Source of the DNA: Antedon mediterranea
Lineage: Eukaryota > Animalia > Echinodermata
Direction of reading: 5' to 3'
DNA length: 64,000 nucleotides
Assembly: GCF_964355755.1 (NCBI RefSeq)
Contig: NC_092673.1
Coordinates: forward strand, 19,465,648-19,529,647
Made by a program: the position numbers and the translations under genes. The notes below the pieces were generated by a model. That model was given only the letters and a program-made list of their open reading frames with translations, searched no databases and was not told where the DNA came from. Shown piece after piece: positions 32,344 to 55,638 of this stretch; position 1 is the stretch's first letter, and every line of letters starts with the position of its first letter.

Positions 32344-32778
32344 ATGACGTCACCCGATAAAATTCCGATTAGCAATACATGTTATAATGCCTGATTGTAA
32401 TGACTAGAGCCTTAAGTTATGTACTGTATGTAGCATGACGTCACCCGATGACATTCCGATTAGCAATACATGTTACAATGCTTGATTGTAATGACTAGAG
32501 CCTTAAGTTATGTACTGTATGTAGCATGACGTCACCCGATGACATTCCGATTAGCAATACATGTTACAATGCTTGATTGTAATGACTAGAGCCTTAAGTT
32601 ATGTACTGTATGTAGCATGACGTCACCCGATGACATTCCGATTAGCAATACATGTTACAATGCTTGATTGTAATGACTAGAGCCTTAAGTTATGTACTGT
32701 ATGTAGCATGACGTCACCCGATGACATTCCGATTAGCAATACATGTTACAATGCTTGATTGTAATAAATAGAGCCTAA
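32344..32778. repeat. 91-bp tandem repeat (about 4.8 copies), each unit with a TGACGTCA (CRE) palindrome
   Basis: TGACGTCA starts at 32345, 32436, 32527, 32618 and 32709. Confidence 0.9.
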
Positions 32779-32906: not shown

Positions 32907-35900
32907 ATGGCAGCAGGTACAACAAAATAAACACGTTTTTTTAGTAATGGCAAGTTATTCAAATCGTTGTCTTATTTGTTTTCTGTTACCATTTTTTTTT
33001 ATAGATTTTGATCTGGATTTAGTATATGTTTCAACTTGGTATGATGAACACGACCTCTTGAGACAGCTGAAAGTTTTGTACCAAGATTTGATTGCAGCAT
33101 CGAAAATAGACAGCGCCACCAAAACGATACACTTACTACAGGAATTAAGGGCAAATGGACGTTTAAGTTCAGACAATCGTATATTGCTATACGACACAAT
33201 AAAAGTAACTGAACAGTTTGGTGTCATAGATCGTCTCAAACATTCTTTTCTTGAAGTTCAAGAAATTACTAAGTTCACTCGATATCGACTACAAATTGTA
33301 GCTTTCGGAAATGGACTTAGACAGGCTGATGTGGACAGAATCGATGCATTGTACAATGGTAGTGCGTTAAAGAATTATAAAGATGCCTGGAGCATGATTC
33401 TGGATTTTGAACAGAGAAAAATAATCTGTGAAGAAAAAATTGAAGAATTCATTAACAATTTAAGACAAGTTGGACTGGGAGCAAGAGTAACACCTCTGAC
33501 TAAAGGTATGTTAGTGCGAAAAGCCTAAAAACATTAATTTGGTAAAAAAAAAAAAAAAACAGTCTTGACAACATTAAATCCATGTCCGCCGACTGAAGGT
33601 GCATGTTAATACATTGCTGCTGTTTTGTTATTATTATTTCGTATAAATAATGAAAAATATTTGTGTTGAATTAATGCAATAATTAATAGATATTTTTATT
33701 AGCGGTATAGAATATCATTGTAGCATTTTTTGTCCGTTTACAGTAATTGTTTCTCCATTACTAAATAATGTACCGTATAATTTTGGTGAAAGTAAATACT
33801 TGGCCTCGTACTACATTTCTGTAACAATCAAACATTCTTAATGCATTAACAACATGAGATGAGTAGTAGTAATTAGTACGGTCTTTATTTAAATTTATAT
33901 TTAATTTTACTTTCTATGGTCCAGAGATTCAGACATAAAAGATTGAATGAATAATAAAATCACATCGTCTTACTTTAATCGTAATTAATTTGAAAATAAA
34001 ATGTCTTCATAATAATAATAAAAACAATTGATGAGATTTTTGTAATCAAATTGAAAAATAGTAATTCACCGTAATAATTCATGTACTGTAGTTACAACCA
34101 TCTTGGTTCAAACAACATTGTTATAATTTCGTTCTGATTAATGCTATATTCTGTTTGTCGCCCTCTATAATACCTTTTATTTTCATGGATACAGCATTAA
34201 TTATTAAGGCCTATAAATGCACAATTGTATCATGTCATTTGGCATCAAATTGTGGATAATCATAAATAAATGTGATTATGACGTAGATAATTGTGAATTC
34301 AGTTTCAATTGTAAACATATTACGCAACAAATAGCCTTTTAACCTAATAACATACATGCATGGTATTAAAAAAACAAAACAATATGTCGTGTATCCTTTC
34401 ACCAAAGAATAGAATATGTAATATCAATGATATAATTGCAAACGTGTGTTTACAACAGCAGCTCCACGATAATTACCAGTTATTTTTAATTTAGGATAAA
34501 TGGTAGGTTTTTAATTAAATTAATTCGTATACGCGTGCAATAATATTTCAATTTTGAATAAAAGCAAATTCATTTACAATTTTAACTTTTCCTATTAAAA
34601 TTAATTGTCAAAACTATCACTTTGAACGCAATTTCTATTATTTCTGTTATTTGGTATTGCTTTCGTATTAAGAAAAAAAGTTGGTTTTTTTTTGTGGTTT
34701 TTTTTGGACTTTATTTACTCCAGATGTTTTAAAAATCTATTAAAATCTTGATTCAATTTTCAGATATTGCTGCTCGTGAATTATATTTTCAAAATTAATT
34801 TAGGTGTACTAAATAACTGATCCAGTATAAGTCTGTTTGTGTTCTACAGTATGTATAGATAATAAAATGGTTTAATTTCTACTTTTAAAAATTAAACAGC
34901 ACTCATTATTTATGAAGGAAACTGAAACTTTTTTACAGTATTCTCATGAAACTATAAATTGCAATTTACGTTTTAAAATCTTATTCAAGGTTCAGAACTT
35001 ACTTTCGAAATTGCTGCTCGTGAATTAGATTTTCAGGAAGCCTACAATGAAGCCTTGAAAGAGGGTAAAGTGAAAGTCAATCTTGGAATGCTTAAGGTAA
35101 TTGGACAGGAAGGAGTTGGTAAAACATGCCTCATAAATGCATGTCTTGGAAAAGAGTAAGTAGTAGATTGATGATAATGGTTTACTTGTTATCTTTGGGA
35201 AGTGAGGAGGGCAGAGGGAGGGGAGTGAATGGGTTTTATTAAATGTTATGTAGATTAAGTAAGATTACTTATGTATTTGTCTATTTTGTGTTATATACTT
35301 TGTTGGACGCACCTTCAAAATGTGAAGTGTGCCACTGTTACAAAAGTGAAATGAACATTACAAAATATTTGTGAGTCAACTAAGAATTACAAACCAGCCA
35401 ACTTCTTGATATGTTTTTGATACCTACCACTTTCTAAATATTGCAGTGATAAATCTAACAACAGTTGAATTATAACAACTTTTAGAAATAATTAAATCAG
35501 TTACTACCTAATTATAACACCATCACATTTTCTATAGATTATAGAATTTAATTTTAATCTTGTCTTCTAAAAAAAAATCATACGAATTGTTGGATAACTT
35601 GACTTCCTAAATATATAATAATTGAATATATTAAAATGGTTTTGAATTAAAAGGAGAAAATTGAAAATTTTAGAGTACTTAAAATGACTGAAAATCATTG
35701 TTGGTTACAAATTATTATATTTCTGTCAGATTTGAGAAAGACCATAACATTACAGATGGCATAGCAGTGATTAGAACAGCAAGCACAACGTGGACAGAAG
35801 ATACTGCTGATAGTGGTAAACAATTAGCATTATTACTTTTACCACCATCCATGTAAAATTATTATCTTTAATCTCATCATAATAAACACAAACAAACCCA

Positions 35901-38900
35901 CAATAAAATGAAAGTATAGATGGAATGTGTTACATTATTGTACTAAATAATTAATATGATCTTCTAGAAGATATAGAGGGCGCATGATGAGAGACACGAA
36001 GTTGTCATGGACACGACTTCTTGAGCTGAATAAAATAACAGTCTATTTGTATTTACATCTGTCTCTAGTTTCAGTATCTATAACATAGTGAAACATAACA
36101 TAACATGGTGACCCCGACCAAAGGACAGGAGAATTAATCAAGATTCCTTTGCGTAAAATAACGAGAAAGTCAGCTAGGCTAGCTAACCCCTGCACCGCCG
36201 ACAGAGCGCCGAGAGAACGTCGCAGTGAGGCGTCCAACAAGTTAAAACGTGAAACCGTGAGTAGCGTTGTACAACGACGTACACCATATCATGGCTTACG
36301 CAATCCCACCGCCAAAGGCAATGACCTTTGCGGGAAGCGGTAACCTAGAGAAGGCTTGGATAACTTTCAAGGAGGCCTGGGTAGATTACAGAATTGCTGT
36401 AGGCCTTGACAAAAAGAACACTAACATTCAAATTGCTACACTAAAATCAATCATGGGAGATGACTGCCGTAAGAGACTAAAAACATTAGGGCTCACAGAC
36501 GCAGAAATGACAGACCATGACACAATATTAGCAAAGTTACAGGAACATTTTAAGCCCACACGGAATGTTCTATACGAACGGCACAGATTTTACACTGCAA
36601 AACAAGAAACTGGCGAGACCATCGACCAATATTTTGTCCGTCTAAGACAATTGGCAGAAGAATGTAAGTTTGATACGAAAGAAGACGAGATGCTAAGAGA
36701 CAAACTAGTAATAGGATGCTCTGACGCGGCTGCGAAAGCCAGAATCTTTCGTCTAAAAGACAAAAACACTGATCTGAAAACAACACTAGAAAGTTTGAGA
36801 ATCAGCGAGGCAGCAGACAAGCAATTAAAAGCGTTGGATCACGAGACTAACAGCAATGTAGAGGCAGTAAACTACAACAAGCCTAACTACAACAAACACA
36901 AAAAGCTGTGGAACGGTACACAAACCGAGACAGTGTCCAGCGTATGGCCAGTCATGCAGAAAATGCGGAAAACGAAACCACTGGGCCAAGAAATGCTTGT
37001 CTGGGCAAAAGAACCCCAGACATGCGCATGAAATACAGACGACCGCAGATGACCTCGATGACCCAGCAAACTACGGGTTTGACCTTGACGTGATTAACAT
37101 TGATACATGCGAAAGCAGATCAACCAGAGGTGAAAAATACGCTGTCATAATAGTTAGAACCGACCACCAACAGAGCATACGCCTTAAAGCGAAAGTTGAC
37201 ACAGGTGCCGCGAAAAATATACTAAATCACAGCACATACAGAGCTCTATTTGGTCCCCGTCATCAAACTGAGAAATCGCCAGTAACCCTCACAGGCTATG
37301 GAAACATACCAATCAAAAACCTTGGCAAAGCTTCAGCACGTAGTGTTGAACACAATCGGATGAAATTGAACAATGTGGAGTTTATCATAACCGAGAAAGG
37401 TAACAACTTGATCAGCCATGACCTATGCTGCAAGCTAAACATTGTCCGATACCCATGTGAGAAAGAGCAAAACTGTTGCACAAACTTTGATATTGAAGAG
37501 TGTGAAAACATCACAACAAAAGAGCAACTCATTAAAGAAAATCACGAGACATTCAAAGGAGTAGGAAAAATCCAGAATGAATACGATATCGAACTAACAC
37601 AAGATGCGGAACCAACAATAAAGCCAGCCCGAAGAACGCCAGAGGCACTGAAGATTCCGCTACGCAATGAACTAAACAGATTAACTGACCTAGGAATCAT
37701 AAAGGAAGTGCGTGAACCAACGGACTGGGTCAGTAACATCGTACTCGTAACAAAACCGAACGGAACACTCCGTATTTGTTTGGATCCTCATGACCTCAAC
37801 AAGGCTGTGAAAAGACCACACTACTACGCGAAAACCTTAGATGACATACTCCCAGATCTGCGCGAGGCGAAATACTTTTCAACGCTAGACCTCCGAAGCG
37901 GGTATTGGAATATACCACTTACCAACAGATCACAACTATTGACAACATTCAGTACAATTTACGGGAGATTTTGTTTCACAAGACTACCGTTCGGACTGAT
38001 ATCTGCACAAGACGTTTTCCAAGTGGACCTAGATGGCATATTTGGCAATATTCCTAATGTCTTCTGCATCAAAGATGATATCTTAATAGCAGCCAAAACC
38101 AGTAATGAACATGAGAAGGCCATACAAGATGTCATGAAAGCATGTAGAAAGGAAAACATCAAACTAAACCCTGATAAGTGCCAAATTAACAAGCGAAACG
38201 TCAAGCTCTTCGGACATGTACTCAGCAAAGAAGGAATTGCACCCGACCCAGCAAAGGTAACAGCAATACAGAACCTAAAAGCACCTGCCAACAAACAGGA
38301 ATTGCAATCGCTCTTGGGACTAGTACAATATCTGTCCAAGTTTGCGAAGCTGAGCCATCTAACAGAGCCTATAAGGAAGCTCCTACAGAAGGATGCAGTA
38401 TATGAATGGACACCGAGCCATGACAAAGCGCTCGACAACATAAAAGACGCCATCATAAACACTCCAGTCCTCGCTTATTTTGATGCCAGGAAAGAGATCA
38501 CAATCCAGTGTGATGCAAGCATGAAAGGCCTTGGAGCAGTGCTCATGCAACAAGATAAACCAATACATTACGCATCAAAATCGCTAACTCCTGCAGAGAA
38601 AAATTACAGTAACATTGAGAGAGAAGCACTAGCTGTCGTATGGGCCATAAAACACTTCAGATATTATGTGTTTGGACGCGAATTCACAATCTGCTCTGAT
38701 CACAAACCATTAGAAGACATCGCCAAGAAGGACATCTCAAAAATGCCAAGCAGACTCCAACGACTGATGCTGCAAATGCAGGATTACAAAGGCACAATTA
38801 AATATGTACCAGGCAAAGAAGTCCCGATAGCAGACTGCCTCTCGCGCTGCATAGACACTAATCAGAGAACATTTCAAATTCCTGATCTTGATGTCCAGAT

Positions 38901-41900
38901 TAACGAACTGACTGATACGAAATTATTCGTCTTAGATAAAATAAAAGAAGCAACCGCAGCAGACAACATGCTACAAGAACTCAGCAAAATTATACTGAAT
39001 GGCTGGCCAAACGAAAAAAACCAGTGTAACGAAACTACACATGCGTATTGGCAACATAGATACGAACTAGCGATACACGATGGTATAATTCTCAAAGGCT
39101 CCAGAATCATCATACCAAAAGAGATGAGACCAAGAATCCTAAACATACTCCACAAACAACACCAAGGAACTGAGAAGACCAGACTGAGAGCCAGACAATC
39201 AGTATACTGGCCAGGAATTAACGCAGACATAGAACGTATCATAAACAATTGTGATGCATGTCAAACCCACCAAAGAAGCCAATCAAAACTACCAGTAAAA
39301 CCCATTCATACATCTGAAGCTATGGAAATTATTGCAATCGACCTGTTTGAATTTGAAGGAAAGCAATACCTATTAACAGTTGACTACTTCACAGGATACA
39401 TATGGGCAGACCAAATGATAAACACGACGAGCAATACAGTCATCAACAAGCTCGAAACAATATTTTCACTGTTTGGAAATCCCACTACAATCATTTCAGA
39501 CAATGGATCGCAGCTTACAAGTGAAACACTGCAAGCATTCTGCAACAACCACGAAATCATCCACAGAACAAGCGCACCACACCACCAACAAGCAAATGGG
39601 AGAGCTGAACGAAGCATACAAACACTCAAAAGCATGCTAAAGAAATCAGAGAAAGGGGAAAAGAGTTTATATGAAATTCTTGTCGCATTGAGAGATACCC
39701 CCATATCATCAGACATTCCATCACCATATACATTAATGTTCAACAGGAAAGTCAAGAACTCTGTACCAAGCATAAACTTCCCAACTCAGAGAAACAACAA
39801 TCATATCCAAGCTAAAGCACATCGCACAGAAGCATACGCTCAATATCATGCTGAACCACCACCACTTGAAGTCGGCAAGGAATGCAGGTTCCAGAAAGCA
39901 CCAAAAAGTATGTGGCAACCAGCCAAAGTTGTTCAATGCACCTCCGACCGCAACTACACAGTAATAACACCAGAAGGTGTACAATACCAGCGAGATCGAA
40001 TAAACATACGACCTACACCAACTAGCACCCTGAGCAAACAACCTAGTGAAAAACAAGCGATCACACCACAAATAACTGGGAAACAAAAGATAAACATCAT
40101 ACCAGCCCAGCAAACGAGACCTAAACGAACCCACACTATGCCAGAGAAATTCAAGGACCACATCATGGAATAAACTACAAGATAAGCACCCATGATACTT
40201 CACGTTTGTAAATAGTTGTGTTACAGAACTGTTTAGAGAGAAAGTTAATTTTTATAGTGAACTGTTTGAAAACGTTTAATGAACAATGACTGTTCGTGAG
40301 TTATTATCGTTTTGAGACTTTAGTGTTGATAACCATACTCTACATGGACATACAGTTATGTTGGACAATAATCATTTATGTAATTTGAGCAGTGATTGTT
40401 TTTATGAATATTAATGTTAACTATAACAAGAGAATAACAATAATGACCACAGACAACATAATAATATTAAACTCTTTATTATTATAATATCCACTTATGC
40501 ATAACCGCAACTTTTCCTTAAGAAGAGGGATGTTACATTATTGTACTAAATAATTAATATGATCTTCTAGAAGATATAGAGGGCGCATGATGAGAGACAC
40601 GAAGTTGTCATGGACACGACTTCTTGAGCTGAATAAAATAACAGTCTATTTGTATTTACATCTGTCTCTAGTTTCAGTATCTATAACATAGTGAAACATA
40701 ACATAACAGAATGTAATTCAATAAATTACTACAGTACAACTGTGTCATGGTGTCAACATGCATATTTTTATTGCATTTTGGAATAGTGTAAACAAACATA
40801 TTTGTACACTATGTTACATTGTTTAGTGTAAATGTATGTTTCATTAAATAGAATTGCATTAATAATGAGGTTGAAAGCGGTAAAGTTATGTATCAATATA
40901 TTCACTTAAATCAAACCTAGGACCTACACAAATTTACATTGTTTTTTGTTTTTTTTCTTCAGGTAATCCTTTGAAACTGTATACAAAGGTGGTTGCAGAC
41001 AAACTAAAAGCAATGGAAAGGTCAACTAAAAATGTATGTCAACAATGTAACCATGTAATAAAAAAAATTTAATATTACAAAAACTTTCTACAAGACTTTT
41101 CTATTATGGTATACTAACCACAACTGTTGGGTCTAAGGTCAAGATTACAATCAGCAAAACACTATTATATTTCATTGTCTGCAGGCCACAGTTTTCATCA
41201 GAAGACAATCATAAGGTTCAGAATCACGTCACAAACAAATATATTGTTGAAAAAAAATTTCAAAAATCCAGGGTCTCGGGAGGCTGGATGTATAAACATT
41301 AGAGAAGAGTGAAATTCACTTTTACAGAGTGAAATTAAACCTAAACTAGAGGGTACTCCGAGAGTACAAACCTCCGGCTACTGTAAAATTCCCCTACATA
41401 AAATGCCCCCTGAATATTTTTTTTTTAAACATTTTTTTTTATTAGTGTAAATATGTTAACTGCACACTACAAAGTTGTGGATGACAGTGTGGTGTAATGG
41501 TTATGTATCCAGCCTCTCACAGTTGAGATCGCTGGTTCAAGCCCCACTGAGGGTTTTTTTTTTTTTTATTATTTTTTTATTTTATTTGTTTTTGTTTTTT
41601 GTGGACCTTGATATTTGACCCCAACCCTTCAAAATTTAACCACAATTATATGATGTGTCATTGATCATTGTGGCTAAGTTTGGTGAGAATCGGATCAAAA
41701 CTGTGGTCTCTAGGCAGTAAAATAGTTTTTTGTTAGTTGTGACCTTGACCTATGACCTTCCCCCTCAAATTCGAACTCGAGCTTTTTGGGCATAGATCAT
41801 TGTGTCCAAATTTGGTTAGAATCGGATAAAAACTGTGGCCTCCAGGCTGTTCACAGACACACACACAAACACACACACAAACATACAGGGGTGAAAACAT

Positions 41901-44900
41901 AACCTCCTTGGCGGAGGTAATAACTTACTAATGCACAAAATTACAGAGTCAAATCTCACACCACAAACGTCAAAAACATTTTTACAAAAATAACATTTAA
42001 TATTTTTGAAAAAAAAAACATTTTAAAATCAACTTTTGACTTATTGCAAGTTAAATGCATACCCATTACACCTAACGCCTGCAGTATTTATTAGTGCACA
42101 CAGTGGTAAGACAGAACAATGGAGAAAAAAAATTCTGAATGAGATTTTCATGGTAGGAAAATTATACAGTAGATAGTAGTACTAGTATGCACTCTAGTTA
42201 GCCAAATATTTTGATTGGAAATTTTAATATATTTAAAACAAAAAAAAATTACTATTCGCAAAACTATTTTACTTTTAGTTCTTTTACTCTATTAAAGGGA
42301 TTTTTTTGTATGTGTCAGGTTGTTCAGGAACCAGCAGATGACTATAATATTGTTAATGACAATAATAGTGATGGCAACCTCAACAACAAAGATGATGATG
42401 ACACCCACAACAAAGATGATGATGGTTTGTAACTTTGCTAATTACTGATAATAACTAAATCAACAATGATAATGACAACTTCAATAATGATATTGACAAC
42501 TAAATGTTATTGACAACCACGGCAATAATAATACATAATGAGAACTAAATTTGTAAAAGCACAAGTTAACGGAGTACTTACTCGAACGTTTCGATCTCTA
42601 TCAGAGATCCTTCTCAACTGACTGCGGAGTGTTAATGCAGCTTGGTCATTCTTGACGTCATCTGTTGATGACGTCGTACGCCTCCGGTTGTATGTTGGAG
42701 GTTGTGCGGGGCTCGGCCAGGTGATGTGTCTATCAAATCATTGTACAAATGCGAGAGTTCGTGGGCTCCAGTGTCCCGGTTCATGGTCTTCTCTTTATTT
42801 CTCCTTATATGTAATGATTCTCTAATCTGTCTGTCTTTGCGTTTAGGCTCTTTGGTTAAGATGGTAGCCTCCCAGTTTGATAGACACATCACTCCGTTAA
42901 CTTGTGCTTTTACAAAAACGAAATTTGTCATCTATACAAAATCGAAGCTAAATGAAATTCTTTCAAGAGAACTAAATTGTAGTAAGAAATGATGAAAATT
43001 ATGATAATATTGATAATAATTATAATTACATTAATCTTTGCATTCTATTTTATCTACAGAGACTGAAACTATTCCATTTGATACAGAACAGCAGTTAGAT
43101 AAAAAAACACTTGAGGAATTTGAGAAAAATAAGGAGAAAACCTTAGAAAAAACATTCAACATCTGGGATCATGGAGGACAGTTGATATACCATGGTATAC
43201 ATCGGGTTAGTTGTGATATGTACTGTATGTATTGCCTTTGATTGATAGTCCACTACACATGTTTTATTTTTAGTTATCCGCTTGGTATACCAAGCGGATA
43301 ACTCCTTGTTATTGTATGAGATCAACATTTTTTTTCTGTATTATTCTTCTTTCCATCCTTCCTTTTTGTGGATCGCGTTTCTCTAAAATGTGTAAACATA
43401 ACATTTCATAACTTTGACAACATATGGGCATTTACGTGAAGTTGTGCACCTCCTATTTTTGAATGACGTCATAGTTGCGCAACGTGACTTACGCGCAATT
43501 TTATGAATTTCAATGATTGATCATAGATTAAAAACCAAAAGTCATTTAGTATTGACACTTTGACAAAATTTAAGTCATATCAGGGGCAAACTTTCTACGG
43601 ATTAGAAATGGCATGTTTCACAAGAAGTTACGCACGCACGCGCATTTAAAATTTCAAAATGCGCAAAATTAATTTCTAATCAACTTTTTATGCGTTTCTT
43701 GTCATTTTGAGCATGTCAAAAATTCCCACGGGCGCGCAATTTTTTACGCACGCGGTGCGCACGTAGCGTTAAAAACATTTTTTTTTTCTTGAATTATATT
43801 TTTCAAGTCTTTCCTAGTAATTTTGAAAACAATTTAGACCTTTTCCAATTTAAATAACGCCACACGAACACGTTGAATTAAACATTTCATGCGCGTTTTT
43901 TATGAAAAAGCTTAAAAAATCGTCAAAATTTTGTCTTTTTTTAAACAGTCATAGTTTCTAAAGTAAACCGTGAACCGTTTATTTTTATTACAAAATCTAG
44001 AAGTTGATGAGTTGTAGATATCGGATCATGCATCGATAAGGCTAAAAAAACATTGTGACGTCATCGTATGGCCACACGAATGTAAAATATAGGATTTTTG
44101 TCTCTTTCGTTATTGCTCATCACATTCAATGGAGCGCATCACGCTTATCTGTTTTCCTTTTTCTCCTACATTTATACATTGTGTAGGTCAATCAACTTTC
44201 TTTAGCATGAGATAAAAATATTTTAATTTTTATGACGTCATCATGCCTAAAAATTTTAATTACGTGGGTCATTAATTTCATCTTTACAGTAAATTTTATT
44301 CTGTAATAGCTCGTAAGAATAAAATGTGATAATCACGATTAAAACGTTTTCTGGAAGCAATTGGATTGTAGATACGAATTCATGTAAACATTTTGCCAAT
44401 CGGATGTTGTGACGTCATCATATGGCCAGTTGAATAAAAAAAGTTGTATTTTTATATTTTGCGTAATAGTTCATCACATTTAAAAGGGTGCGCATCTATA
44501 TTTTACGTATTCAAATTTCTTCTACACGTTAATATGTTGTTCCTAAGATAATTTCCTTCTGAAATTGCTATCTAAGTGTTTCATTTTGATACCGTCGCCA
44601 TGTTAAAAATTGGAATAAATGGCGGGTCCCGTAATTTCACCTATTCTACACTGTATGTAATATGTATACAGATTATACTGTTTGCATGTATATACTATAT
44701 GACACAAAATTGACAGAATTCAGCACTAACAGCATATCATATTCTTCAGTTCTTGTCATAATGCCATAATCTTTATCTGTGTGCAATATTCCAACGTATG
44801 ACGTGCACGTGGCGTTTGTCGTGGTGCGGATAACTAACTCGTCAAAGTGACGAGTTTCATGTCTAGTTTATATTATCGTTTCTTATTTAATGTCGTTCCC

Positions 44901-47900
44901 TGAAATAAAAGAAGAATTTATGAAAATGAATTAGTTTTTTACTCATAAGGGGTGTTTCTGCAGAGAAGAATTAATTTGATAAAAATTGTATGAACAGTAA
45001 TCAAGTTGTTATTTGTTCAAAAGTTGTTTATTAATTAAACTCTTTCTTACAAAGTAAAATAATTTACATTTGTTTATATATCAAAAATCCTTCCAGTACA
45101 GTATAGTCAATCAAAATTATATTTTTCAGATTTTTATGACATTAGAAGCACTTTACATTGTGGTGTTTGATCTCAGTAAAGACCTTGATGATCCTGCTAT
45201 TGTCATTGATTCAAATGGAGTAAGTATTTCAAGACCATTTAGGCATTGTCCTTGTTGTAGTAAAAAGAGTCCTGAGTAGGACTATGTTTTATCAATTGCA
45301 AAAAGGCTGACTATTAAAGATGGTATTTCATACCTATGGGATGACCTGCGAGAATTTATATTTAAAATACTAAACAAATAAAATTTAATTGACTATTTAA
45401 AAAAATAATGACATAAGGATTGTGTATTTTTTTAACAGAGAGAATATCGGCATCATTGGACAAATCTTCAGTTCATATTATCTTACATCCTGTCAGTTTA
45501 TTCTCATAGCCGTGATCTAAGAAAGAACATGCAGAAGGACGTTCACCAACCAACTATCCTTATTGTGGGTACACATAAGGGTAAGCTTGGTGAGACTGAA
45601 GAACAACAAAATGTTGAGGTTAATAATACTTTTAATTTTTGCATCATTAAACATAGCTGCAGCCATGAATACATTGATAGAGTGAAGAAAGTAGATAAAG
45701 AATCTACTGGAGTACTGTATCAATTACTTAATACTATAGTCATATAAGAAGTTTTAAAATATTTATTTAAACAAAAATTACATTATGATATAAACATTTT
45801 TTGTTTATAACCAGGCAAAGAAGAGGTTTAAAAAGATTCGAAATGTGCTTAAAGATAAACTGTATGAAGCACATGTATATCACCGATATTTTGCAATTGA
45901 AAACAGCCAAGAAACAACAGATGAGAGCTTCAGCATTCTAAAAAAAGTTGTTGATGAGTTCATGTCAGATTTAGAAAAGCCTATTCCTTTAAAATGGATG
46001 CGTTTTCGATGTGAACTAGATGATCTAAGAGGAAAAAAACACTTTTCTTTGTGTCCTTTCAAAGAGGTAAACTTTATATTTTATAAAATTATTATTATAG
46101 TATACAACGTATTGAATTAAGAATTAAATGAGAAATAATGTTTGTCAACAGAAATATTATTGTTATATTTTATCTTTTATATTTACAGCCATTAAACATT
46201 TTGAATAAATTTACTTAATACTCACCTAATAAAAAGAACATTTTGTTGATTAATTTTTGCTTTCTACTGCCAAACACATGATTTGTTTTGTTTTATTTAT
46301 TTTTTAATAAATAAATGGTAATGAACATACCCTTAGTTTGTGGGAATGTTTTTGTTTTATTTCTTGTTATGTTGAGTGAGACATTTGTAGGTCAATCGTG
46401 AAATAAAGTATTTGTACATCTGATGACAAAATGGTCTAACACCCATAATGCTATCCTATGCAGTTCTTGTACCACACTTCTTTATATCTTCTAAACTAAG
46501 ATACCAAAGTGATTTTACACTTGAATGTTTTATTTACATCTGAATATAACTTATTATTTCTTTAGCTTAAATTACTGGCTGGCAAGAATGGTATTGCTGA
46601 AGATAATCAATCAATCCTTCTTAACTTCCTGTATGATCTTGGTGAAATTGTTTACATGCCTGACAACAAATTATTGAAAGATAAAGCGGTGTTAGATCCG
46701 ATGCAGCTGGTTGAAATTGTTACTGCTTTTGTAACAGTCATTACACCTGAAATTCCAGTAAGTGGGTCATATGGTATTCAAAATTGTAAGCAAGTGTTGG
46801 TGTTTTCTTGTTCCATGGGGAAATAATTGTTTCTAATATCAAAAAATAGAGGAACATAAAAATATATAGCCATTAAATTTTTATTGTTGAATGGTATGTT
46901 TATTTATTATGAACATGGTCATTGTGTCTATAAAGCAATGATCTATATTCTGAAATTTTAGTGTGTTTTAATTTCTCAACATTCCACTAGCCTCACTCAA
47001 TAACTAACTTTTTAATCATTCAATAAACAAAAATCATAAGTATGGCTAATATGTAGTGTTTTTTTTATTAGGCGGCTATAAATAGAGATGCCTTTGATAA
47101 ACTTGACAGAGGCATACTGGAAGAAAGATTGTTGCGAAAATTATGGAGCGAGAGTAAAGTTGACAAAGGAAAGAATTTTGAATTCCTTGTAGCACTGATG
47201 ATTCAATTAGGTTTCATTTGTAAGAGGAAGACAACCAGCAGCCAAGACATAAAGAGTAAATCTAAGGTAGGTTTTTATTCTTTAATTTTTCCCATATGGT
47301 TTTCATGTAAAATTACATGTTTATTTCCAACTATATTTTTTTGTTAAACTTTTTACCTAAAACAGTTTTTAACATATACATGATGTGATGTTTCTTTACA
47401 AGAATCTAAATCAATTATATAGAAATTTTCAATTTCAGAAATCGGTTGTGAAGCGATCATTTTATGTGCCACTACGCCTTGCTTTTAAGACATCAACTGA
47501 AGTGAAACCAGTACCTGATGAATTTCCAGCTATCAGTATCTATTACGACTTTGAGGGATATCTGCCAGATGTATTGTTTCCATACATGATTATTGATTTC
47601 CTTAACAAATTTCAAATGGAAGAAGTTGACCCAATACTCTTGTATAATCATGCTCAACTTTACTTCGACCAAGACCATCATGTGACTTTATCTCTCGTCA
47701 AATTCATAACTAAGGAGGATAATCGAAAGTTCTTGTTAAAGGTACTGTATCATGTTTGATATCAGTGCTTGATAAATAATCTGAATTGCTAGTTTGTTAA
47801 TAGTCAGAAGCAAAACAATGCCATTAACAGCTGCAAATTATCATGTAGGTTCATATTTGAACATATTTCTTATCTCAATCTTTTCACTGTACTATGTGTC

Positions 47901-50900
47901 ACAACTATTTCCTTTTCTTTCCAGGTGACTATTAAAAGAACAAATACTCTTGCTGAAAAAAGTAATGAAGAACCCTCTTCTGAAGCATGTAAAGAGGTAT
48001 GTTATCATCGTCTTTTTAGACGTTTTTGTTATATATTTAATTAAAAATCTATAATAAAAAAATAACAATTAGAGCCGATTTTTTTTTAGCTGAGCTAGAA
48101 AACCCAATGGAATGAAAAAATTATTTGGGAAAATTTAACCAGGAAGCAGGAAAAAAACAGCCAATCAAAAATACCTTAATAAAACTTGACCTTGATTCTC
48201 TACCACTTCATTAAAAAGTATATTACACAAGGTAGAAATTAAAGGATTTAAAGAACAATAAATAAATTCATCTTATCTTTTTGCAATGTTCTATAAATGT
48301 GGGATGCTAGCCAAAAGCCTATGTTTAATAAAGTTATTGTGTGGAGTTAATAATTGTTAATTGCATGTTATTGAAAATCATTAAAAAATATATCTTCAGG
48401 TTTTATCAACAGTTGAGATGTCATTTAAACAATCTAAAGATGGCGGTAGAAGAGGAATTCCATTCAAGAGATGTATTCCTTGTGATTGTAGTCTTACATC
48501 AAAAAAGAAGCATTTCCAATTTGTTAAAGATTTTCAGCGCAAGTCGTTGACATGCAGCAAAGATGGCATATTCATAAAGATGGACGTTACACGTTACCAT
48601 CTGTTGTTTGGAAGTAAGAATAAAAACTGTATGCAATAGAGAGTTAATTTTAGGAAATTTAAAATGTTTCACTGTATTGTATATCCTCTATATAAGCATT
48701 GAATCAATATCTTTTGCTGTATGTCTTATATAATTACACATAGTTTTTACTTTTGTGGTAATGGCGTAAACAATCCAAACCTGCCAGATGATGATATATG
48801 TTGCCAAAATAAACTCATTGTTTAGTAGCCCTCTAATTCATCATGTTGTTTACTCGATTTGCTAAACATTTGAACCCACTTGTACTTGTACACATTAAAA
48901 TGGATTTCATATATATATTATAGTAATAATTAGTAATAGTAATTTAAATTCTGTTAAATAGAAAAAAATAGATTCATATTATTTCTAACTTTATTATTTT
49001 TATAGGAGGTAAAGAAGGGCCTAACAAAGAGCAATCAAAACAAGGTATGACAAGTAGACATCAATTTTCTTATGCTAAACTAATCTCTAGTACTGGTTCG
49101 CGAATATATAAAGCGTACATAACTTGAAATTGTCAAAAGCGCAATTAAGGCACTCCACACATAATACCGACATGATAGAATGTACCGTATGTAGTTGAAT
49201 ATAATTGTGTCCATACATGAAACAAGAAAACAAAACAAATTTGGAAAATAAATATTTACACATTGAAATACAGAATCTAATTCACGCTCACCAAAAATGC
49301 ATAAAATATTTATAAATCTTAGCCAAAATAAAATTGGGTATGGAAAGAAATGGGATCAAAAATCTAATTTAACATACTATTAATTATTTATAATGTAAAA
49401 CAGTTGGTGAAAAATACCTATTCGGGGCAAATCGTTTAACCTAAATTTGCTTTAATCATTATTAAATAATTATCTAACTTAATTAGTAGGCCTAATGGAT
49501 TTCAATTTCTGGTACAATTTAGTACAGAAATTATACATACGAATAAAACTTTACGTCCTATAAAAACCTACTTTGTTACGTAAATGTATACATACCCTTA
49601 TACGTACGCTCGTGCAATTTCCCATATGGACCAACTTTATATACCATCGAGTAAAAATTCTAGAAGTAATGCACGATTTACCGAATTGTACCCTTGCATA
49701 AATTTACTTATAGATGAACAACATTTAAATATTGACTGGATTAGCTCCCTGGTTTAAGTTAATAGTAGAGTGTGAACTGGACAAATATAGGCCTACTCAC
49801 AAGCCATTAACATGCACATACTTTTACATTGATGGGTAGAAACCTGTAGGTAAATTTGTTACTACAAATAAAACCAGTTAAACATTTATACTTTAATATG
49901 CTTAACTCCAAATTTCCACATGATGATCATTAGTTCACATCATCAAGTTTGTGACTCTATTAAAGGCCCATTTACACTAGGATGATACAGTAAATATATA
50001 GACAAACACACATTTTTCATACATAAAACAAAAGAAATCTAAAGAGTTGTTATCATAGAACTATTTAGGATAACCATGTATGCTTTTTTTGATGAAAATA
50101 ATATATTTTCCCACCTCCAATCAAATGATGTCCTGATTTAATAAAAGCAATAATATTGTTTTTAGTGATCATGATTATTACATTTTTATTATAATTTCTT
50201 TTGTAATTGAGCCTTAAAGCTGATAATAATTTGTGTAAATTTAAAATATTTATATTACTTTTATTTTGTGTCTATAATTGTAGTTAAAAAAAAAAATGTG
50301 TTGAGCTGTAACTCTACCTACCATAATAAAAAAAATGACTATGAAAGAAGGAAAATATATAAACATTAAACTTTCTATAAGTATCTAGTGAATGATCAGT
50401 TTTCAATTGGGATACAGATGCATCGCATCTAGAACAATATAAATTAGTTTTGCTGCTTATTTTTGTCTAGACTAAATTATAATAATGCAAGGTGTCTTGG
50501 ATTACAGAAATCTCAGAGGATGATTTCCTGCAACTGTTGACTGATACAGCAGAGTGGTTTGATGGACTTGGATATCTCAAAATATTGAAAGTCTTATATA
50601 AAGACCATCTGAATATTAATGTGGAGATGGAGAGAGCTGGAAGTGTTTGGGATCTACTGCAGTATTTAAGAGCCTCAGGAAATTTGAAGCCATCAAATCT
50701 CACTATTCTGTATGACACAGTAAAGATAACCCAGCAGTGTGGCTTTAAATCAAACGTTGAGAATCAACCTCCAGAAGATATTAAGGATCATGTGGTATCG
50801 ACGCTGTCACCTTTCAGACAGAAGGTTTATCAGCTGGGAGTGAAACTGAGAAAGAATGAAGTATCAAAACTTGCTAGGTTATTTAACAGCAGACCTACAG

Positions 50901-53634
50901 TAGTGGTAAATGAATACCAAGACAGCTGGAGTTTGATTATGGACTTTGAACATAGAGGGATCATTGATAAGGATTTCACAAAGATGGTTACATTTCTCAA
51001 AGTTTTAGAAAGAAATGGAATGAAATGGGCAAAGAAGATTTTCCTTGATGGTTAGTTTATTAGTATTTCAGATTTAAATCTGTTTTCCACTTGGAAATTT
51101 TAAAGTACAGCATATATGCTTCTTGGATATCCATATTTCCATCTTCCAAATTCCTTTTTGTGACAAGTTCTTTGCTTCATTGAAATTAGTAGCTTGAATA
51201 GCATAAGCAACCAGAGCTCTAGAAATAAGTTATCGTTGTCATTAGCACTCATGTAAAATGTAGGGGGCAGGTGATACGCAATCAAAACGAAATTATAAAG
51301 TCCCAGTGATAGTTGTATTATTAATCAATTTTACATTTATTTGCATGAATGTTAATGTACTGACATGGTATCTATATATAAATTTACGTAAGGGCAAAAT
51401 TCGATAAATCTCGGTTTATTTCTAGAATGTTTACTCGATGGTATATAAAGTTGGTTCGTACTTTCGGTACTGATTTTAACCGCCTGATGTAACCCAGTTT
51501 ACTAATTAAATTGAGTTCGATAATTAGTTATTGACGATTAAAACGAATTTAGGTTCAACGATTTGCCCCAAATAGGGGTGTTTTTCGATCGTGGTATACA
51601 CTGTCTAATGGATGTCCGTCTTGAAAAATACCCGCAGACGATAATACGAGGATGCTTCACATTTTCCTATCTCCTCCTACGATAATTGTTTTTAATGGCT
51701 GAAAACCGGTTGAACAGCTCGAGTACAGCATCATAATGTTGAAGACAGGCCGATTTTCTTTAAAAAATACTATTTTTGATAGATTTAATATACGTTTATA
51801 CAAATGTATTGATTTGCGATGAATGGAACATTCCAATCTCTGTTCCACAATTGTCTATTAAACGGATAAAGAGCTAGCGTTTTCACTCGCCGTATATTAT
51901 GTATAAATCTTTATTATTGCAGTTAAACCACCCACATCATCACCCTTCCCTCACTGGCATGAGTAGCGTTGTAAAACCAGTAGAGGATAGGCCTACGGTA
52001 CATCACATGCCCTAAACGCAGAACAACTTTGGTGGGTAGGGTAGGAACCAACTTAAGTATGAAACAATTGAAAACCATTAGGCCTACTAATTAAGTTGAG
52101 TTAAATAATTTAATATTTTTTGACGATTAAATCGAATTTATGATTTTCCCCGAATAGAGGTGGTTTTCACAAATTGTTTTACATTATATAAACATTATAC
52201 ACGTCGTAGTGATGTATCGTTACATGTACTGTACTATTTCAATCGACTAGGACGGTGATAGTTTCAACAAATTATTACATCGCAATGTTTTACTGTGTTT
52301 AGTGGTATATTATTTGTAAAACATGAAAACAATAATAATAATAATAACTGCAGGTACTTGACAATTTAGAAATTTACAAATTAAAAAGTGGGTTTTGAGA
52401 AGAGATTTGAAGACACTGATGGAAGTAGCCTGACGGATTTCAATAGGCAACGCATTCCATAGAGAAACGGATGCCAAAGAAAACTTAGTGGAAGGATGAA
52501 ATATATGGGCAAGAAGAGACTCAGATCTAGATCTCAGAGACCGCTTATGAACATAAGGTTGAATAAGTTCAATTAATATTTCGTTACTAAATGGATAAAG
52601 AATATATTTAAAAATTGTTCCTGTTTGCACCCATTCTTTTCCCCATCCCTCAACCCTAATGTTACATACAAAACACAAATTAAGTTTGTTCAAATTTGAC
52701 AATTGGTCTCATTTTGTGACAAGTTTCTCTTTCGGAAGTAATTCCCATGGTGCTAATTTTAGTTGAGTACATAAATCACAGTGTCTATTTATTTGTTCCT
52801 GCAGGCTGTAAACGACATGTATTATTGTCCTGCGGTACGTACATTTGAAATCGCCAGTTTTTTAACGCTGAAATTATTATGTATTCGAGAACCATCTGTG
52901 GGCACGACCTAGATGGTACGCGAGCGAAGCGAGCGTACCATCTAGTTAATATAATTTTGCAAAAACTTGTGTTTTCACAGATGAAAAAGATGATACAGAG
53001 ACATTACTGCAGTCTGTCATCCGAGGTAGTCAACAAGGTACGATCCATTAGAGGTCATAGGAATACAGTTGTGTGTGTATAAATACTACTAAATGAACCA
53101 ATTACGGTATTTTTGTATCCAATTAAAGGTGAAAGCAGCGAGTTTTACATTTTAACAAAATTAATTTAGAACAGTAGCTGTGGTATGAAACAAATAATGA
53201 ATTAATTTTTGTTGCGAACCATAAAAGATTGAATTCAATTTTAAATTGAAGTTCAATATTACTTGTACTGAAATACTAAATGCTATGTATAAGGAATATC
53301 TTTACCAATAATTAAAAAGTGCTTTTTGTCATCCCCTAAAATGATGCATTGATAAAAGTTTAGCTAATTTTGATAAACAGAAACAAATCATAATGAAAAC
53401 ACTTTGATAATCAAAAATCAAAAAAATTTAGTCTTTATCAAAACATTTTTCTTTTTAATTTCAGATATCTGGTTGATAGTTGCAGTATTTTGTATTGCTT
53501 TAATCGCAGTCTTAGCAGTTTTCGTTCCATTTTACGATCTAATAATAATATTTTTAAGTACTATGGGTTTGTTTGTAACTCTGGTTGAATTGGTGTGGTG
53601 TGTACATAAAAAAATGACTGCATCTGGTACTTAG
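32907..53634 (+). CDS. Gene B (complete model, 20 coding exons, 1140 aa): DED-DED / Roc GTPase / COR / DED-DED / 2 TM helices
   Basis: Exons 32907-32916 (ATG), 33005-33505, 34990-35155 (P-loop GQEGVGKT), 35730-35815 (ITDGI, G2), 40963-41033, 42319-42424, 43060-43205 (WDHGGQ), 45130-45219, 45439-45618 (VGTHKG), 45815-46066, 46566-46757, 47072-47266, 47439-47741, 47925-47996, 48400-48613, 49006-49044, 50508-51050, 52805-52834, 52981-53037, 53465-53634 sum to 3423 nt in one open frame with GT-AG junctions. The 50508 acceptor is weak. Confidence 0.82.
33005..33505 (+). CDS. Gene B N-terminal tandem DED-like exon
   Basis: 501-nt phase 1-1 exon inside ORF 32947-33528; LKVLYQD, LLQELRANGRLSSDNRILLYDTI, TRYRLQI, WSMILDFEQRKII. 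Confidence 0.7.
34990..35155 (+). CDS. Gene B Roc P-loop (G1) exon
   Basis: Reads AYNEALKEGKVKVNLGMLKVIGQEGVGKTCLINACLGK; GxxxxGKT preceded by the ALxxG..V segment commonly seen before Roc domains. Confidence 0.88.
36291..37031 (+). CDS. gag: Gypsy gag (frameshifted before the zinc knuckles)
   Basis: MAYAIPPP..YERHRFYTAKQETGETIDQY..LAEECKF..MLRDKLVIG capsid-like motifs; the CCHC knuckle lies in the +1 (pol) frame. Confidence 0.85.
   Translation: MAYAIPPPKAMTFAGSGNLEKAWITFKEAWVDYRIAVGLDKKNTNIQIATLKSIMGDDCRKRLKTLGLTDAEMTDHDTILAKLQEHFKPTRNVLYERHRFYTAKQETGETIDQYFVRLRQLAEECKFDTKEDEMLRDKLVIGCSDAAAKARIFRLKDKNTDLKTTLESLRISEAADKQLKALDHETNSNVEAVNYNKPNYNKHKKLWNGTQTETVSSVWPVMQKMRKTKPLGQEMLVWAKEPQTCA
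36871..40173 (+). CDS. pol: Gypsy pol polyprotein (nucleocapsid knuckle, protease, RT, RNase H, integrase)
   Basis: CRKCGKRNHWAKKC, VDTGA, LRICLDPHDLN, RLPFG, IKDD, CDAS, DHKPL, HHCC (HKQHQG..CDAC), IISDNG, NGRAER; frame open from 36871. Confidence 0.95.
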   Translation, partial: TTTSLTTTNTKSCGTVHKPRQCPAYGQSCRKCGKRNHWAKKCLSGQKNPRHAHEIQTTADDLDDPANYGFDLDVINIDTCESRSTRGEKYAVIIVRTDHQQSIRLKAKVDTGAAKNILNHSTYRALFGPRHQTEKSPVTLTGYGNIPIKNLGKASARSVEHNRMKLNNVEFIITEKGNNLISHDLCCKLNIVRYPCEKEQNCCTNFDIEECENITTKEQLIKENHETFKGVGKIQNEYDIELTQDAEPTIKPARRTPEALKIPLRNELNRLTDLGIIKEVREPTDWVSNIVLVTKPNGTLRICLDPHDLNKAVKRPHYYAKTLDDILPDLREAKYFSTLDLRSGYWNIPLTNRSQLLTTFSTIYGRFCFTRLPFGLISAQDVFQVDLDGIFGNIPNVFCIKDDILIAAKTSNEHEKAIQDVMKACRKENIKLNPDKCQINKRNVKLFGHVLSKEGIAPDPAKVTAIQNLKAPANKQELQSLLGLVQYLSKFAKLSHLTEPIRKLLQKDAVYEWTPSHDKALDNIKDAIINTPVLAYFDARKEITIQCDASMKGLGAVLMQQDKPIHYASKSLTPAEKNYSNIEREALAVVWAIKHFRYYVFGREFTICSDHKPLEDIAKKDISKMPSRLQRLMLQMQDYKGTIKYVPGKEVPIADCLSRCIDTNQRTFQIPDLDVQINELTDTKLFVLDKIKEATAADNMLQELSKIILNGWPNEKNQCNETTHAYWQHRYELAIHDGIILKGSRIIIPKEMRPRILNILHKQHQGTEKTRLRARQSVYWPGINADIERIINNCDACQTHQRSQSKLPVKPIHTSEAMEIIAIDLFEFEGKQYLLTVDYFTGYIWADQMINTTSNTVINKLETIFSLFGNPTTIISDNGSQLTSETLQAFCNNHEIIHRTSAPHHQQANGRAERSIQTLKSMLKKSEKGEKSLYEILVALRDTPISSDIPSPYTLMFNRKVKNSVPSINFPTQRNNNHIQAKAHRTEAYAQYHAEPPPLEVGKECRFQKAPKSMWQPAKVVQCTSDRNYTVITPEGVQYQRDRINIRPTPTSTLSKQPSEKQAITPQITGKQKINIIPAQQTRPKRTHTMPEKFKDHIME
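41344..41921 (-). mobile_element. HINE/Helitron-like element carrying a tRNA-derived segment
   Basis: Minus strand begins ATTACCTCCGCCAAGGAGGTTATG, has a GT microsatellite and ends GCCGGAGGT..GTACTCTCGGAGTAC (hairpin)..CTAGTT. Confidence 0.6.
41482..41555 (+). pseudogene. Degenerate tRNA-derived (SINE-head-like) sequence
   Basis: A-box TGGTGTAATGG and B-box GGTTCAAGCC at tRNA-like spacing followed by a T-run; acceptor stem does not pair well. Confidence 0.5.
42548..42919 (-). mobile_element. Penelope-like element 3' fragment (GIY-YIG tail)
   Basis: ORF 42632-42931: ATILTKEP..RQIRESLHIR..MNRDTG..LSHLY; bracketed by inverted copies of TTTGTAAAAGCACAAGTTAACGGAGT. Confidence 0.7.
43269..44867 (+). 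mobile_element. Non-autonomous Helitron/Helentron (HINE)-like element
   Basis: 5' AGTTATCCGCTTGGTATACCAAGCGGATAACT hairpin, 3' GCGGATAACT, hairpin ACTCGTCAAAGTGACGAGT, CTAG-T; 3' half homologous to 8560-9020. Confidence 0.62.
50508..51050 (+). CDS. Gene B second tandem DED-like exon (paralog of the N-terminal exon)
   Basis: ORF 50492-51055 shares W[YF]D, LKVLY.D, G.L...N..ILYDT.K.T.Q.G and Y.D.WS.I.DFE.R.II with the 33005-33505 exon; phase-1 donor at 51051. Confidence 0.72.
52380..52585 (-). mobile_element. L2-like LINE 3' fragment
   Basis: YVHKRSLRS..LWNALPIEIRQATSISVFKSLLKTH in ORF 52310-52702. Confidence 0.65.
53465..53634 (+). CDS. Terminal exon encoding a double hydrophobic (transmembrane) hairpin with a short basic tail
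   Basis: Strong acceptor (ttttaatttcag), phase 1; IWLIVAVFCIALIAVLAVFVPF / LIIIFLSTMGLFVTLVELVWCV / HKKMTASGT-stop. Confidence 0.65.
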
Positions 53635-55638
53635 TCACAAAACACAGAAGATGACTAATCAATGTTTGTAAAAATATGGAATATTTTATTTATTTGTGTT
53701 TCATTTTATGCTTCATTTTTGTTCAATTCAAGAAACATTTATTGACCAAAAATATTATATCATAACAATGGTTTGCATATAATATATATAGTCGAGAGAC
53801 TACAAAGGCCCAATGGGCCTGTCGCTGTAGTCCCTCTTTACATTATACAAATAATAATAATACAACACTTAATCTTAATTAGCCATTACGTACATTATAT
53901 AAATGGAAAAAAAAAAGAATACAGTATCTTAATTAATTAGGTTAAAAATTGGTATATATATATATATTATGCCAGTATTGTGTTTAATAATAAATAATTT
54001 AAATAAATGGAAACATCTAGTTAGTTTATTTTGTTGTTACTATTACAGTCAACTCTCCCAATACTAATATTATTTTACTATGAATTAAAGTATTTATTAA
54101 CAAATGAATTTATGAATAATTTACATAAGGCTCAGAAGAAATGGACGAATAACCTAAAAGATAAATTATTAAAACTATCTAAAGACTTGATGTTAATAAT
54201 TTAATTATTTTATCGATTCCTTTTTCTTTCTTACCTTATCATAATGGACACAAATCCTGCATATCAACGTAAAATCTGTTTATAAGCATCACATACAGTT
54301 TAAGATTTTTAAGATGACAATAGTTCAAATACATGTAGCATGTCAATATAATCTGTATGTATTGGTATTTGTTTAACATATATATCTTTCTATATTTGCA
54401 TTATTTTATATCGTATACATGTCAATTTAATCTATAGGTATGTGTATTTGTTCAATATATATACTTCTATACTACTATAATATGTTATACCGTAAATACA
54501 AATTGTAAGTAGTAGTTGTACTAAGATGACATCGGGTATGAAGCGTCTCACATACACACAGAGCCAAAATTGCATCTTGGACTTGCACCGTGTATGGACT
54601 CTAACCTTACGGTTTCCATTAAATATACCATTTCATGCTATCATTCTAAATAACTAACTTTCAACCTACTGCATTCCTCTTTTTTTCATACCATCCATCT
54701 TATCTTGGTGAAAAGGGAGGATACTACATTTTCCTCCCCTGAGTTTATAGCCTCTCTACTCGAACACAAACTCGAACACAAATAAGATCACAAATAAGAT
54801 AGTTTAACAAGACAATTTTAATCATGTATTTTACCGCCATTTTTCATTTCTACATTTTAATTAACATCGTATCTAAAATTTTAAATGAGAAAATATATGG
54901 TTAATATAATGAATTCTGGCATCTTATTATGTAAATATACCGGTATTTTAACTACTCTAAACACTTACTTTTAATTGTCACAAATGTACTTATATGTATA
55001 TAATATATTCATCAATGAGAATTTAAATAAACGTGAGAAGAACTCACACAAGACAAAAAAAAACTCTCCCAATACTGGACACCTTTGGGCTGGCATAATA
55101 TTTCTAGTTTTCTGGAAAGTCTGGTATTCAGAATGTGTTTCTAATGGTAAATAAATATGGGACCTTTTGGAACTCAAGAAGTGTCTGTTTTTAGGAAAGA
55201 GTTTCTGGTTTTTGTGGCCAGTATTGGGGGAGTTTTTTGTTATATTAGTTCTAATTTAATTCAAATTATGCATCTTTACACATGTGGGTTTGTTGCTGTC
55301 AATTATAATTTGTTAAATTTGAATGGGCAATAGGGATGTCCAAAAAAAAATGTGAAAATTGATGTTTTCAAAATTATATTATCATCTATAATTATGAACA
55401 AGTAATTGAGAGAAGCAATCCAATTTTATTATTTTTGAGTGCATATAAAAAAAACTAAAGTAGAATGTTCAAATTTTAACAAAATGAAATTAAAACAATC
55501 TATTGTCAAAATTGTTGAGGTCTGACAATGGTGATGATGAGAATGGTGCTGAAAATGTTGATGATAATGATTGTTAATATAATGAATGGTGCTAAATGTG
55601 TTTGACACAATTTATGTCAAACGCAGAGCAGGACCAAT

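Follow-up and report, generated by a model that had tools for sequence, protein, structure and literature searches.

A gene on the forward strand of an Antedon mediterranea contig (positions 32907 to 53634 of the 64,000-nucleotide stretch of DNA analyzed here, which we call the window) is predicted to encode a kinase-less Roco GTPase whose Roc-COR switch is flanked on both sides by tandem DED (tDED) modules and followed by a hairpin of two hydrophobic helices. Both tDED pairs probably came from other immune genes by exon swapping, and by sequence the gene is a member of a large tandem Roco family of crinoids, most members of which end in a tDED and some in a hairpin. We propose that the protein acts as a membrane-bound, nucleotide-gated docking hub of a crinoid immune or cell-death network, a reading whose chances we regard as evenly balanced.

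The gene model was rebuilt by coordinate as 20 exons. All 19 introns have GT-AG boundaries, and the exons join into the one frame of 1140 aa that the earlier note had described, with a single terminal stop. The 19-exon frame, which lacks 52805-52834, is identical letter for letter to RefSeq XP_071948801.1 (P0001; 1130 aa), itself a RefSeq prediction; a search with exon 17 as the query also recovered this 100% identical protein, annotated as an "uncharacterized protein" of Antedon mediterranea. The features of the gene and of its upstream neighbor are as follows:

751-17461, + strand: 3' part of an upstream tandem paralogue of the majority Roco type, with exons for Roc-COR and a single exon for a tDED (16938-17461; exon and motif comparison).
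32907-32916, + strand: coding exon 1, start codon and MAA, matching the N terminus of P0001.
33005-33505, + strand: exon 2, phase 1-1, N-terminal tDED module, aa 4-170 (Pfam DED; homology to exon 17).
34764-34803, + strand: candidate competing acceptor of ancestral type, with a 34-bp duplicate of the start of exon 3 (splice scoring).
34990-35155, + strand: exon 3, start of Roc, with the P-loop GQEGVGKT at 35103-35126 (motif alignment).
35730-35815, + strand: exon 4, switch I with the G2 threonine T234 (alignment with Methanosarcina and Chlorobium Roco).
40963-42424, + strand: exons 5 (40963-41033) and 6 (42319-42424), acidic insertion of variable length between G2 and G3 (paralogue comparison).
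43060-46066, + strand: exons 7 to 10 (43060-43205, 45130-45219, 45439-45618, and 45815-46066), G3 WDHGGQ, G4 GTHKG, G5 region, and start of COR-A.
46566-48613, + strand: exons 11 to 15 (46566-46757, 47072-47266, 47439-47741, 47925-47996, and 48400-48613), COR-A and the COR-B-like half with conserved Cys/His.
49006-49044, + strand: exon 16, linker (gene model).
50508-51050, + strand: exon 17, phase 1-1, C-terminal tDED module, aa 875-1055 (fold model and fold search).
52805-52834, + strand: exon 18, a 30-nt frame-preserving candidate that lies in a repeat and is omitted by RefSeq (splice scores).
52981-53037, + strand: exon 19, linker (gene model).
53465-53634, + strand: last coding exon, encoding a pair of hydrophobic helices and a short basic tail, with the stop (hydropathy and model).

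AATAAA occurs at 53989 and 54002, beyond the last coding exon. Exon 18 scores well at its splice sites (9.8 and 10.1), yet its location inside a high-copy repeat and its omission by RefSeq suggest that it is at most a cassette exon. A candidate exon at 51923 was ruled out by an in-frame stop, as was 41185 as the exon following exon 5. The public runs contain one exon junction, 43205 to 45130 (exons 7 and 8), in a single contig of depth 4.3 with 29 letters on its short side; this contig may derive from a close paralogue, and no full-length transcript was seen. None of the 15 joints listed, out of 230, is an exon junction, and run X4 and most of run X1 behave as DNA or as repeat-dominated contigs.

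The exon 2-exon 3 junction comes solely from the RefSeq prediction and has a stronger predicted competitor: the acceptor at 34990 scores -0.5, versus 7.6 for the one at 34764, which corresponds to the site in the paralogues and whose use would lead to an in-frame stop at 34796-34798 and a predicted tDED-only product of 181 aa. The score matrix, built from 24 local training sites, is crude, and the real acceptor at 50508 scores -1.6 when left out. One DNA contig has a joint from 34768 to 35010 and is missing the 241 bases between the two copies of the exon 3 start; it therefore represents another allele, or a paralogue, without the duplication.

Intron 4 holds a Ty3/gypsy-type LTR retrotransposon on the gene's strand (window 35928-40708) with 178-bp LTRs that are 100% identical, a GAATG target duplication, and gag-like and pol open reading frames (ORFs) with RT, RNase H, and integrase; its depth in run X4 is about 10 times that of single-copy sequence, and by sequence the insertion looks very recent. 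Elsewhere, window 21610-24622 contains about 26 copies of an 88-bp unit in an array that is also a long imperfect palindrome, and further arrays lie at 12777-13968, 26764-27659, and 32344-32776, the last just upstream of the gene. Downstream, window 55606-56571 carries a 321-aa ORF fragment with no Pfam match above cut-off, which we take, by eye, to resemble the C-terminal part of a Penelope-like retroelement.

Pfam matches to P0001, all above cut-off, comprise Roc (55 bits), DED (45.5 bits, in two stretches), and COR-A (42.2 bits). No LRR, ankyrin, or kinase family was found at E <= 0.1, in agreement with the earlier note, which had claimed that such exons are absent, and Pfam likewise returned no NACHT or NB-ARC domain and no sensor repeats (LRR, WD, TPR). 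Roc and COR directly adjoin each other as the Roco domain tandem (Pfam, PDB profile, and Foldseek). The G1 to G3 motifs are intact (GQEGVGKT, T234, and WDHGGQ) and can be aligned with those of Methanosarcina and Chlorobium Roco proteins; by the domain tandem and G1 to G3 we assign the protein to the Roco family. Pfam, fold search, and hydropathy together uphold the order tDED, Roc, COR, tDED, and two hydrophobic helices.

The canonical G4 aspartate has a role in guanine specificity. In P0001 the G4 motif reads GTHKG, without the aspartate, so that guanine specificity or affinity may be altered; across 43 rows, the site is G in 17 of 36 readable rows and D in 13, with 7 unreadable. G4 and G5 motifs are known to vary among Roco proteins (PMC6337361). 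The best Foldseek matches of the full-length model are LRRK2, LRRK1, and the C. tepidum Roc-COR, and the model is of low confidence (pLDDT 52.6 and pTM 0.31, with the P-loop half of Roc below 50) and too weak for domain packing. Profile matches for the Roc-COR region are to 3dpu/6hlu; Pfam COR-B has no match in P0001, and the PDB profile alignment extends into that region. A Pfam IL8 match on exon 15 was rejected, being below cut-off and inside COR.

Two further features of this region stand out in the paralogue comparison. In the COR-B-like half (window 47439-48613, aa 745-842), residues H745, C788, C818, and C842 are invariant in 32 of 32 COR sequences, with C820 conserved in 30 and H828 in 28, and these Cys/His residues are a candidate metal site. 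The acidic insert that separates switch I from switch II (window 40963-43205, aa 255-340) differs strongly in length from paralogue to paralogue, that of P0021 containing a long repeat array, and is a candidate decoy or sensor surface.

The modules encoded by exons 2 and 17 are 32% identical (E 4e-22). Pfam detects only the first DED of each pair, and for exon 2 alone the DED match (E 3.6e-6) is below cut-off; we infer the second DED of the N-terminal pair from homology, and that of the C-terminal pair is shown by the model and the fold search. The C-terminal tDED, folded with 42 sequences, gave a confident model (pLDDT 91.3, pTM 0.87) that aligns with the caspase-8 tDED over 168 residues (Z 17.2, rmsd 2.7), and the N-terminal module was compared with it by homology. 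The top 9 rows of the fold search are all tDEDs (Z 13.3 to 17.2), single death folds reaching Z <= 11.2. All 7 structure-search matches at E <= 0.001 are caspase-8 or cFLIP DED entries, and a profile match covers both DEDs of cFLIP (E 0.002), the best sequence match among solved structures. The proposal that these helical exons encode death folds therefore holds by model and structural match for the C-terminal module and by homology for the N-terminal one.

The DED2 FL motif is required for caspase-8 oligomerization (PMC7156525). It is absent here, where the N-terminal pair has A-L and the C-terminal pair R998-L999. The commonest residues at the F site of 198 modules are G (61), A (27), and Q (17), and RxDL is present in only 3 of the 198. 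The tDEDs of an Anneissia caspase-8-like protein (P0006) also have no FL, so its absence shows a different surface and not necessarily lost assembly. The earlier description of these modules as tandem DEDs of the caspase-8/cFLIP type is accordingly right about the fold but not about the DED2 FL motif, which is replaced.

These properties might also be those of a cFLIP-like brake or decoy, in which NLR-type tDEDs would cap or sequester NLR or caspase assemblies at the membrane, possibly together with the 181-aa tDED-only form. In favor of this, P0001 has no protease or sensor domain in Pfam, no FL motif, no G4 aspartate, cFLIP as its closest solved sequence, and a competing acceptor (34764) leading to a tDED-only product. 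However, the caspase-8-like crinoid tDEDs are equally without FL, whose absence is therefore no mark of an inhibitor; moreover, the fold search ranks caspase-8 above cFLIP, and G1 to G3 are intact. We consider a brake quite improbable and prefer a nucleotide-gated docking hub.

Hydropathy peaks twice near the C terminus of P0001, at residues 1076 (Kyte-Doolittle 3.19) and 1100 (2.45), and the low-confidence full-length model shows two helices there. The tail encoded by the last exon is 36% identical to that of the paralogue P0021 (E 1.7e-6), and the predicted hairpin is common to 5 of the 16 paralogous matches. Classical tail-anchored proteins have a single C-terminal transmembrane helix; of the anchoring by two such helices proposed in the earlier note, the two hydrophobic helices are borne out, but the arrangement is that of a hairpin and not of a single-pass tail anchor.

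The hairpin could itself be the effector, with Roc-COR and tDED clustering causing it to oligomerize and disturb a membrane, as has been proposed for the domains in the effector position of prokaryotic Roco systems. The LRR-AP-GTPase-COR-TM-TM architecture recurs in prokaryotes, with at least 85 "COR+TM" occurrences in supplement file 4 of PMC8195603, where the same position holds variable effectors. The Antedon family shows a similar interchange, hairpin and tDED alternating after COR, with the hairpin alone in P0016, P0021, and P0026. Judged by eye, however, the helices are clearly hydrophobic and show no polar face, and we regard a membrane-disturbing effector as distinctly unlikely, and in the docking hub that we favor the hairpin would be an anchor.

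The Roc-COR search returned 16 non-self matches, 14 from Antedon and 2 from Anneissia, of which 12 are 62 to 73% identical and lie on a contig that matches P0001's in length. A profile search for distant Rocos gave 52 matches, 43 of them crinoid and 9 weak others, and named no non-crinoid animal in what was a word-limited search; besides P0001, it placed 27 records, many of them partial, on a contig of that same length. A tDED follows COR, terminally or contained, in 11 of the 16 matches, and P0022 has both a tDED and a hairpin after COR, in the same order as P0001. An N-terminal tDED precedes Roc in 7 other records (P0035, P0038, and P0147 of Anneissia; P0125, P0163, P0171, and P0203 of Antedon), none of which includes a COR in the record. 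This family membership, together with tDED swapping that appears to be recent, had been overlooked in the earlier reading. A low-score TM call at aa 344 of P0147 was rejected as a Roc strand. Other crinoid Roco layouts are found in P0016, P0028, P0168, and P0119, some of which may be fused predictions: ankyrin with two Roc-COR and a TM tail, kinase-Roc-COR-Death-Death, TAZ/KIX-Roc-COR-tDED, and Roc-COR-tDED-ZU5-tDED.

Both tDED exons are phase 1-1, and exons of this phase allow swapping without a frameshift. The C-terminal tDED is 76% identical to that of P0033 and 65% identical to those of the NLRs P0002 and P0004, versus <= 38.5% to other Roco C-terminal tDEDs, and the N-terminal tDED is 60 to 62% identical to modules of P0108, P0123, and the NLR P0124, whose carriers are of fibrinogen-domain and NLR types. 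In an unrooted tree built from 47 modules, hand-chosen among the 198, the C-terminal tDED groups with the NLR copies (100/100), and 10 of 13 close-Roco modules form one distant clade, with the modules of P0001, P0017, and P0018 elsewhere. Holding all 13 close-Roco modules in a single clade is rejected (p-AU 2.8e-37), in a test that confirms but does not discover because the constrained group was defined after the identities were known; the tree, being unrooted, does not give the direction of transfer. It is because both tDEDs sit with NLR-type copies, and not with the copies of the Roco paralogues, that we favor exon swapping. Close similarity among these sequences is evidence of shared origin and not of binding.

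We also weighed whether the double-flanked layout arose only recently as a by-product of birth-and-death shuffling, or is in part a prediction artefact, exons 1 and 2 being a separate tDED product and the Roco starting elsewhere. The exact architecture of P0001 occurs in 1 of 205 annotated proteins (171 + 34), exons 1 and 2 are similar to the 5' ends of other genes at the 60 to 62% noted above, the annotated exon 3 acceptor is weak, a fresh LTR element lies within intron 4, and many family records are fragmentary. Nevertheless, the frame is open across 19 to 20 exons, the fusion is also what RefSeq predicts, the crude acceptor score undervalues the real site at 50508, and both crinoid species have further cases of a tDED ahead of Roc, though in records without COR. 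An accidental or artefactual layout is unlikely in our judgment, and we retain the docking hub as the preferred reading.

The tDED exon is widely shared. A search with it matched 148 representatives; among 171 annotated proteins it is fused to NACHT in 26 and to a caspase domain in 3, each count including one isoform duplicate, and the tDED-caspases include the caspase-8-like P0006 and P0157, which is cFLIP-like by name. The 48 proteins scanned revealed fusions to RIG-I, Rel, TIR (6 of 48), USP, kinase, TPR-NTPase, HEPN, ZU5, fibrinogen, and B-box/NHL domains. All 26 distinct proteins looked up, a minority of the 148 to which P0108, P0123, and P0124 do not belong, are from A. mediterranea or Anneissia japonica. 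In the Atlas, the tDED module falls in an 87-member DED cluster whose commonest phylum is Echinodermata, and the whole protein matches invertebrate Roc-COR-Death/CARD clusters (mollusc and sponge); among the clusters listed none combines Roc with DED, small clusters lying outside the search. Because the same module is joined to crinoid NLRs, caspases, RIG-I, Rel, and TIR proteins, the immune or cell-death context suggested by the earlier note is supported by domain association.

Several individual carriers of the module merit mention. An N-terminal tDED is found on a RIG-I-type helicase (P0065; XP_033103796.1), with no CARD match at E <= 1 in Pfam, and on a Rel-domain protein (P0057; XP_071955940.1). 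P0005 (XP_071947213.1) has an N-terminal tDED of the majority Roco type and a C-terminal one of the NLR type, making it a candidate for linking the two tDED clades; its middle region has no Pfam match and is, we presume by eye, TRADD-N-like. The tDEDs of the NLRs P0047, P0049, and P0053 group with the second tDED module of P0006 (100/99), a candidate receptor-caspase match.

The hub that we propose extrapolates from the observed domain order, C-terminal tDED fold, family expansion, and module sharing. The predicted hairpin would insert in an internal membrane with both ends of the protein cytosolic, and Roc-COR would pass from monomer to dimer and back with nucleotide, the behavior measured in the C. 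tepidum Roco; both this cycle and the role of C-COR have been described (PMC6337361). Dimerization would gather four tDEDs at the membrane, where they would form homotypic assemblies with proteins carrying the closest tDED types, the candidate partners being NLRs such as XP_071948965.1 and XP_071954806.1 and the two-tDED protein XP_071947213.1, and then a tDED caspase. As the protein carries neither an LRR nor an ankyrin sensor, its trigger would most likely be supplied by those NLR partners or by the acidic Roc insert of variable length, and swapping of the phase 1-1 tDED exon would rewire partner choice in each Roco paralogue. Roco proteins have been predicted to be counter-invader switches (PMC8195603), and the Antedon protein may work like an NLR-type switch, though it is not an NLR. 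The earlier idea of an NLR-analogous platform survives for the switch and adaptor (Roc-COR and tDED), to which the analogy is limited by the absence of sensor repeats; NACHT and NB-ARC are absent as well (Pfam).

In a broader reading, which is possible but which we hold as rather doubtful, crinoid innate immunity would have been rebuilt on one mobile tDED exon serving as an address code and standing where other animals have CARD, PYD, or Death domains on NLRs, RIG-I, Rel, TIR, and caspase proteins, with the expanded Rocos forming a second, membrane-bound class of NLR-like switch. This gene would then be a fresh recombinant, both of its tDEDs derived from NLR-type lineages, that connects two NLR pathways at the membrane of an organelle, making it an animal counterpart to bacterial effector-associated-domain systems. 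Near-identical Roc-COR switches bearing different tDEDs, whose closest kin belong to named NLRs and caspases in these same animals, constitute a natural test, through which partner specificity, nucleotide gating, and membrane dependence are directly assayable. They also point to a crinoid-wide tDED adaptor network.

Most of animal Roco biology has come from LRRK2, LRRK1, DAPK1, and MFHAS1, and the idea of Roc-COR as a NACHT-like immune switch is based largely on domain architectures. The LRRK, DAPK1, and MFHAS1 subfamilies have a kinase and/or LRR plus ankyrin repeats, none of which Pfam finds in P0001. Our comparison with published systems draws on PMC8195603, PMC5094078, PMC6337361, PMC4104024, PMC7156525, PMC9334734, PMC11874512, PMC2575513, PMC11378527, and PMC12909245; a description of the crinoid Roco or tDED expansion did not turn up in the literature searched, and subscription papers and supplements may cover it. 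DAPK1 is, like the Antedon protein, an animal Roc-COR protein that carries a C-terminal death fold and lacks LRRs (PMC6337361); it differs in having a kinase, in having just one Death domain, and in the absence of a TM hairpin. The tandem DEDs found in caspase-8, cFLIP, and vFLIP have the same two-domain fold and packing as the Antedon C-terminal tDED, which is 16 to 21% identical to them and has no DED2 FL, RxDL, or caspase domain. In invertebrate DED-NACHT NLRs a DED is joined straight to a nucleotide switch (PMC2575513), and crinoid NLRs bear the same module as P0001; in the Antedon protein, however, Roc-COR replaces NACHT, there is no LRR sensor, and a tDED stands on both sides.

Lineage-specific expansion has a parallel in Trichoplax, whose ROCO genes number at least 17 and include CARD and death domains (Civiero et al. 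2014, PMC4104024), although these have CARD/Death and TPR/LRR rather than tDEDs, and the term "DED" is absent from the text of that paper. The prokaryotic LRR-AP-GTPase-COR systems (PMC8195603) are likened to P0001 by architecture: they too combine Roc-COR with interchangeable C-terminal modules, including two TM helices, and carry matching adaptor domains on switch and effector proteins, but they have LRR sensors, whereas the Antedon protein has none and uses tDED exons. Among animals, an Acropora protein (XP_015757179.1; TRADD-N, Death, Roc, COR, Death, Death) is likewise kinase-less with death folds on both sides, and two kinase-less Amphimedon proteins (XP_019855546.1 and XP_019861208.1) have a DED after COR, the order Roc-COR-DED-TRADD-N-caspase being listed for Amphimedon (Kaur et al. 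2021, PMC8195603). The Antedon protein differs from these in its caspase-8-type tandem DEDs on both flanks and its terminal hairpin, and in having no TRADD-N, ankyrin, or caspase; "DED+APGTPase" has 0 occurrences in the part of the Kaur supplement file searched. The novelty of the architecture is lower than the earlier note rated it, and each of its elements has precedent, since that supplement lists death-fold-flanked (Acropora), COR-DED (Amphimedon), and prokaryotic COR-TM-TM forms. What is new here, and more interesting than the architecture, is the tDED exon as a promiscuous crinoid module and the likely exon swapping between NLRs and Rocos.
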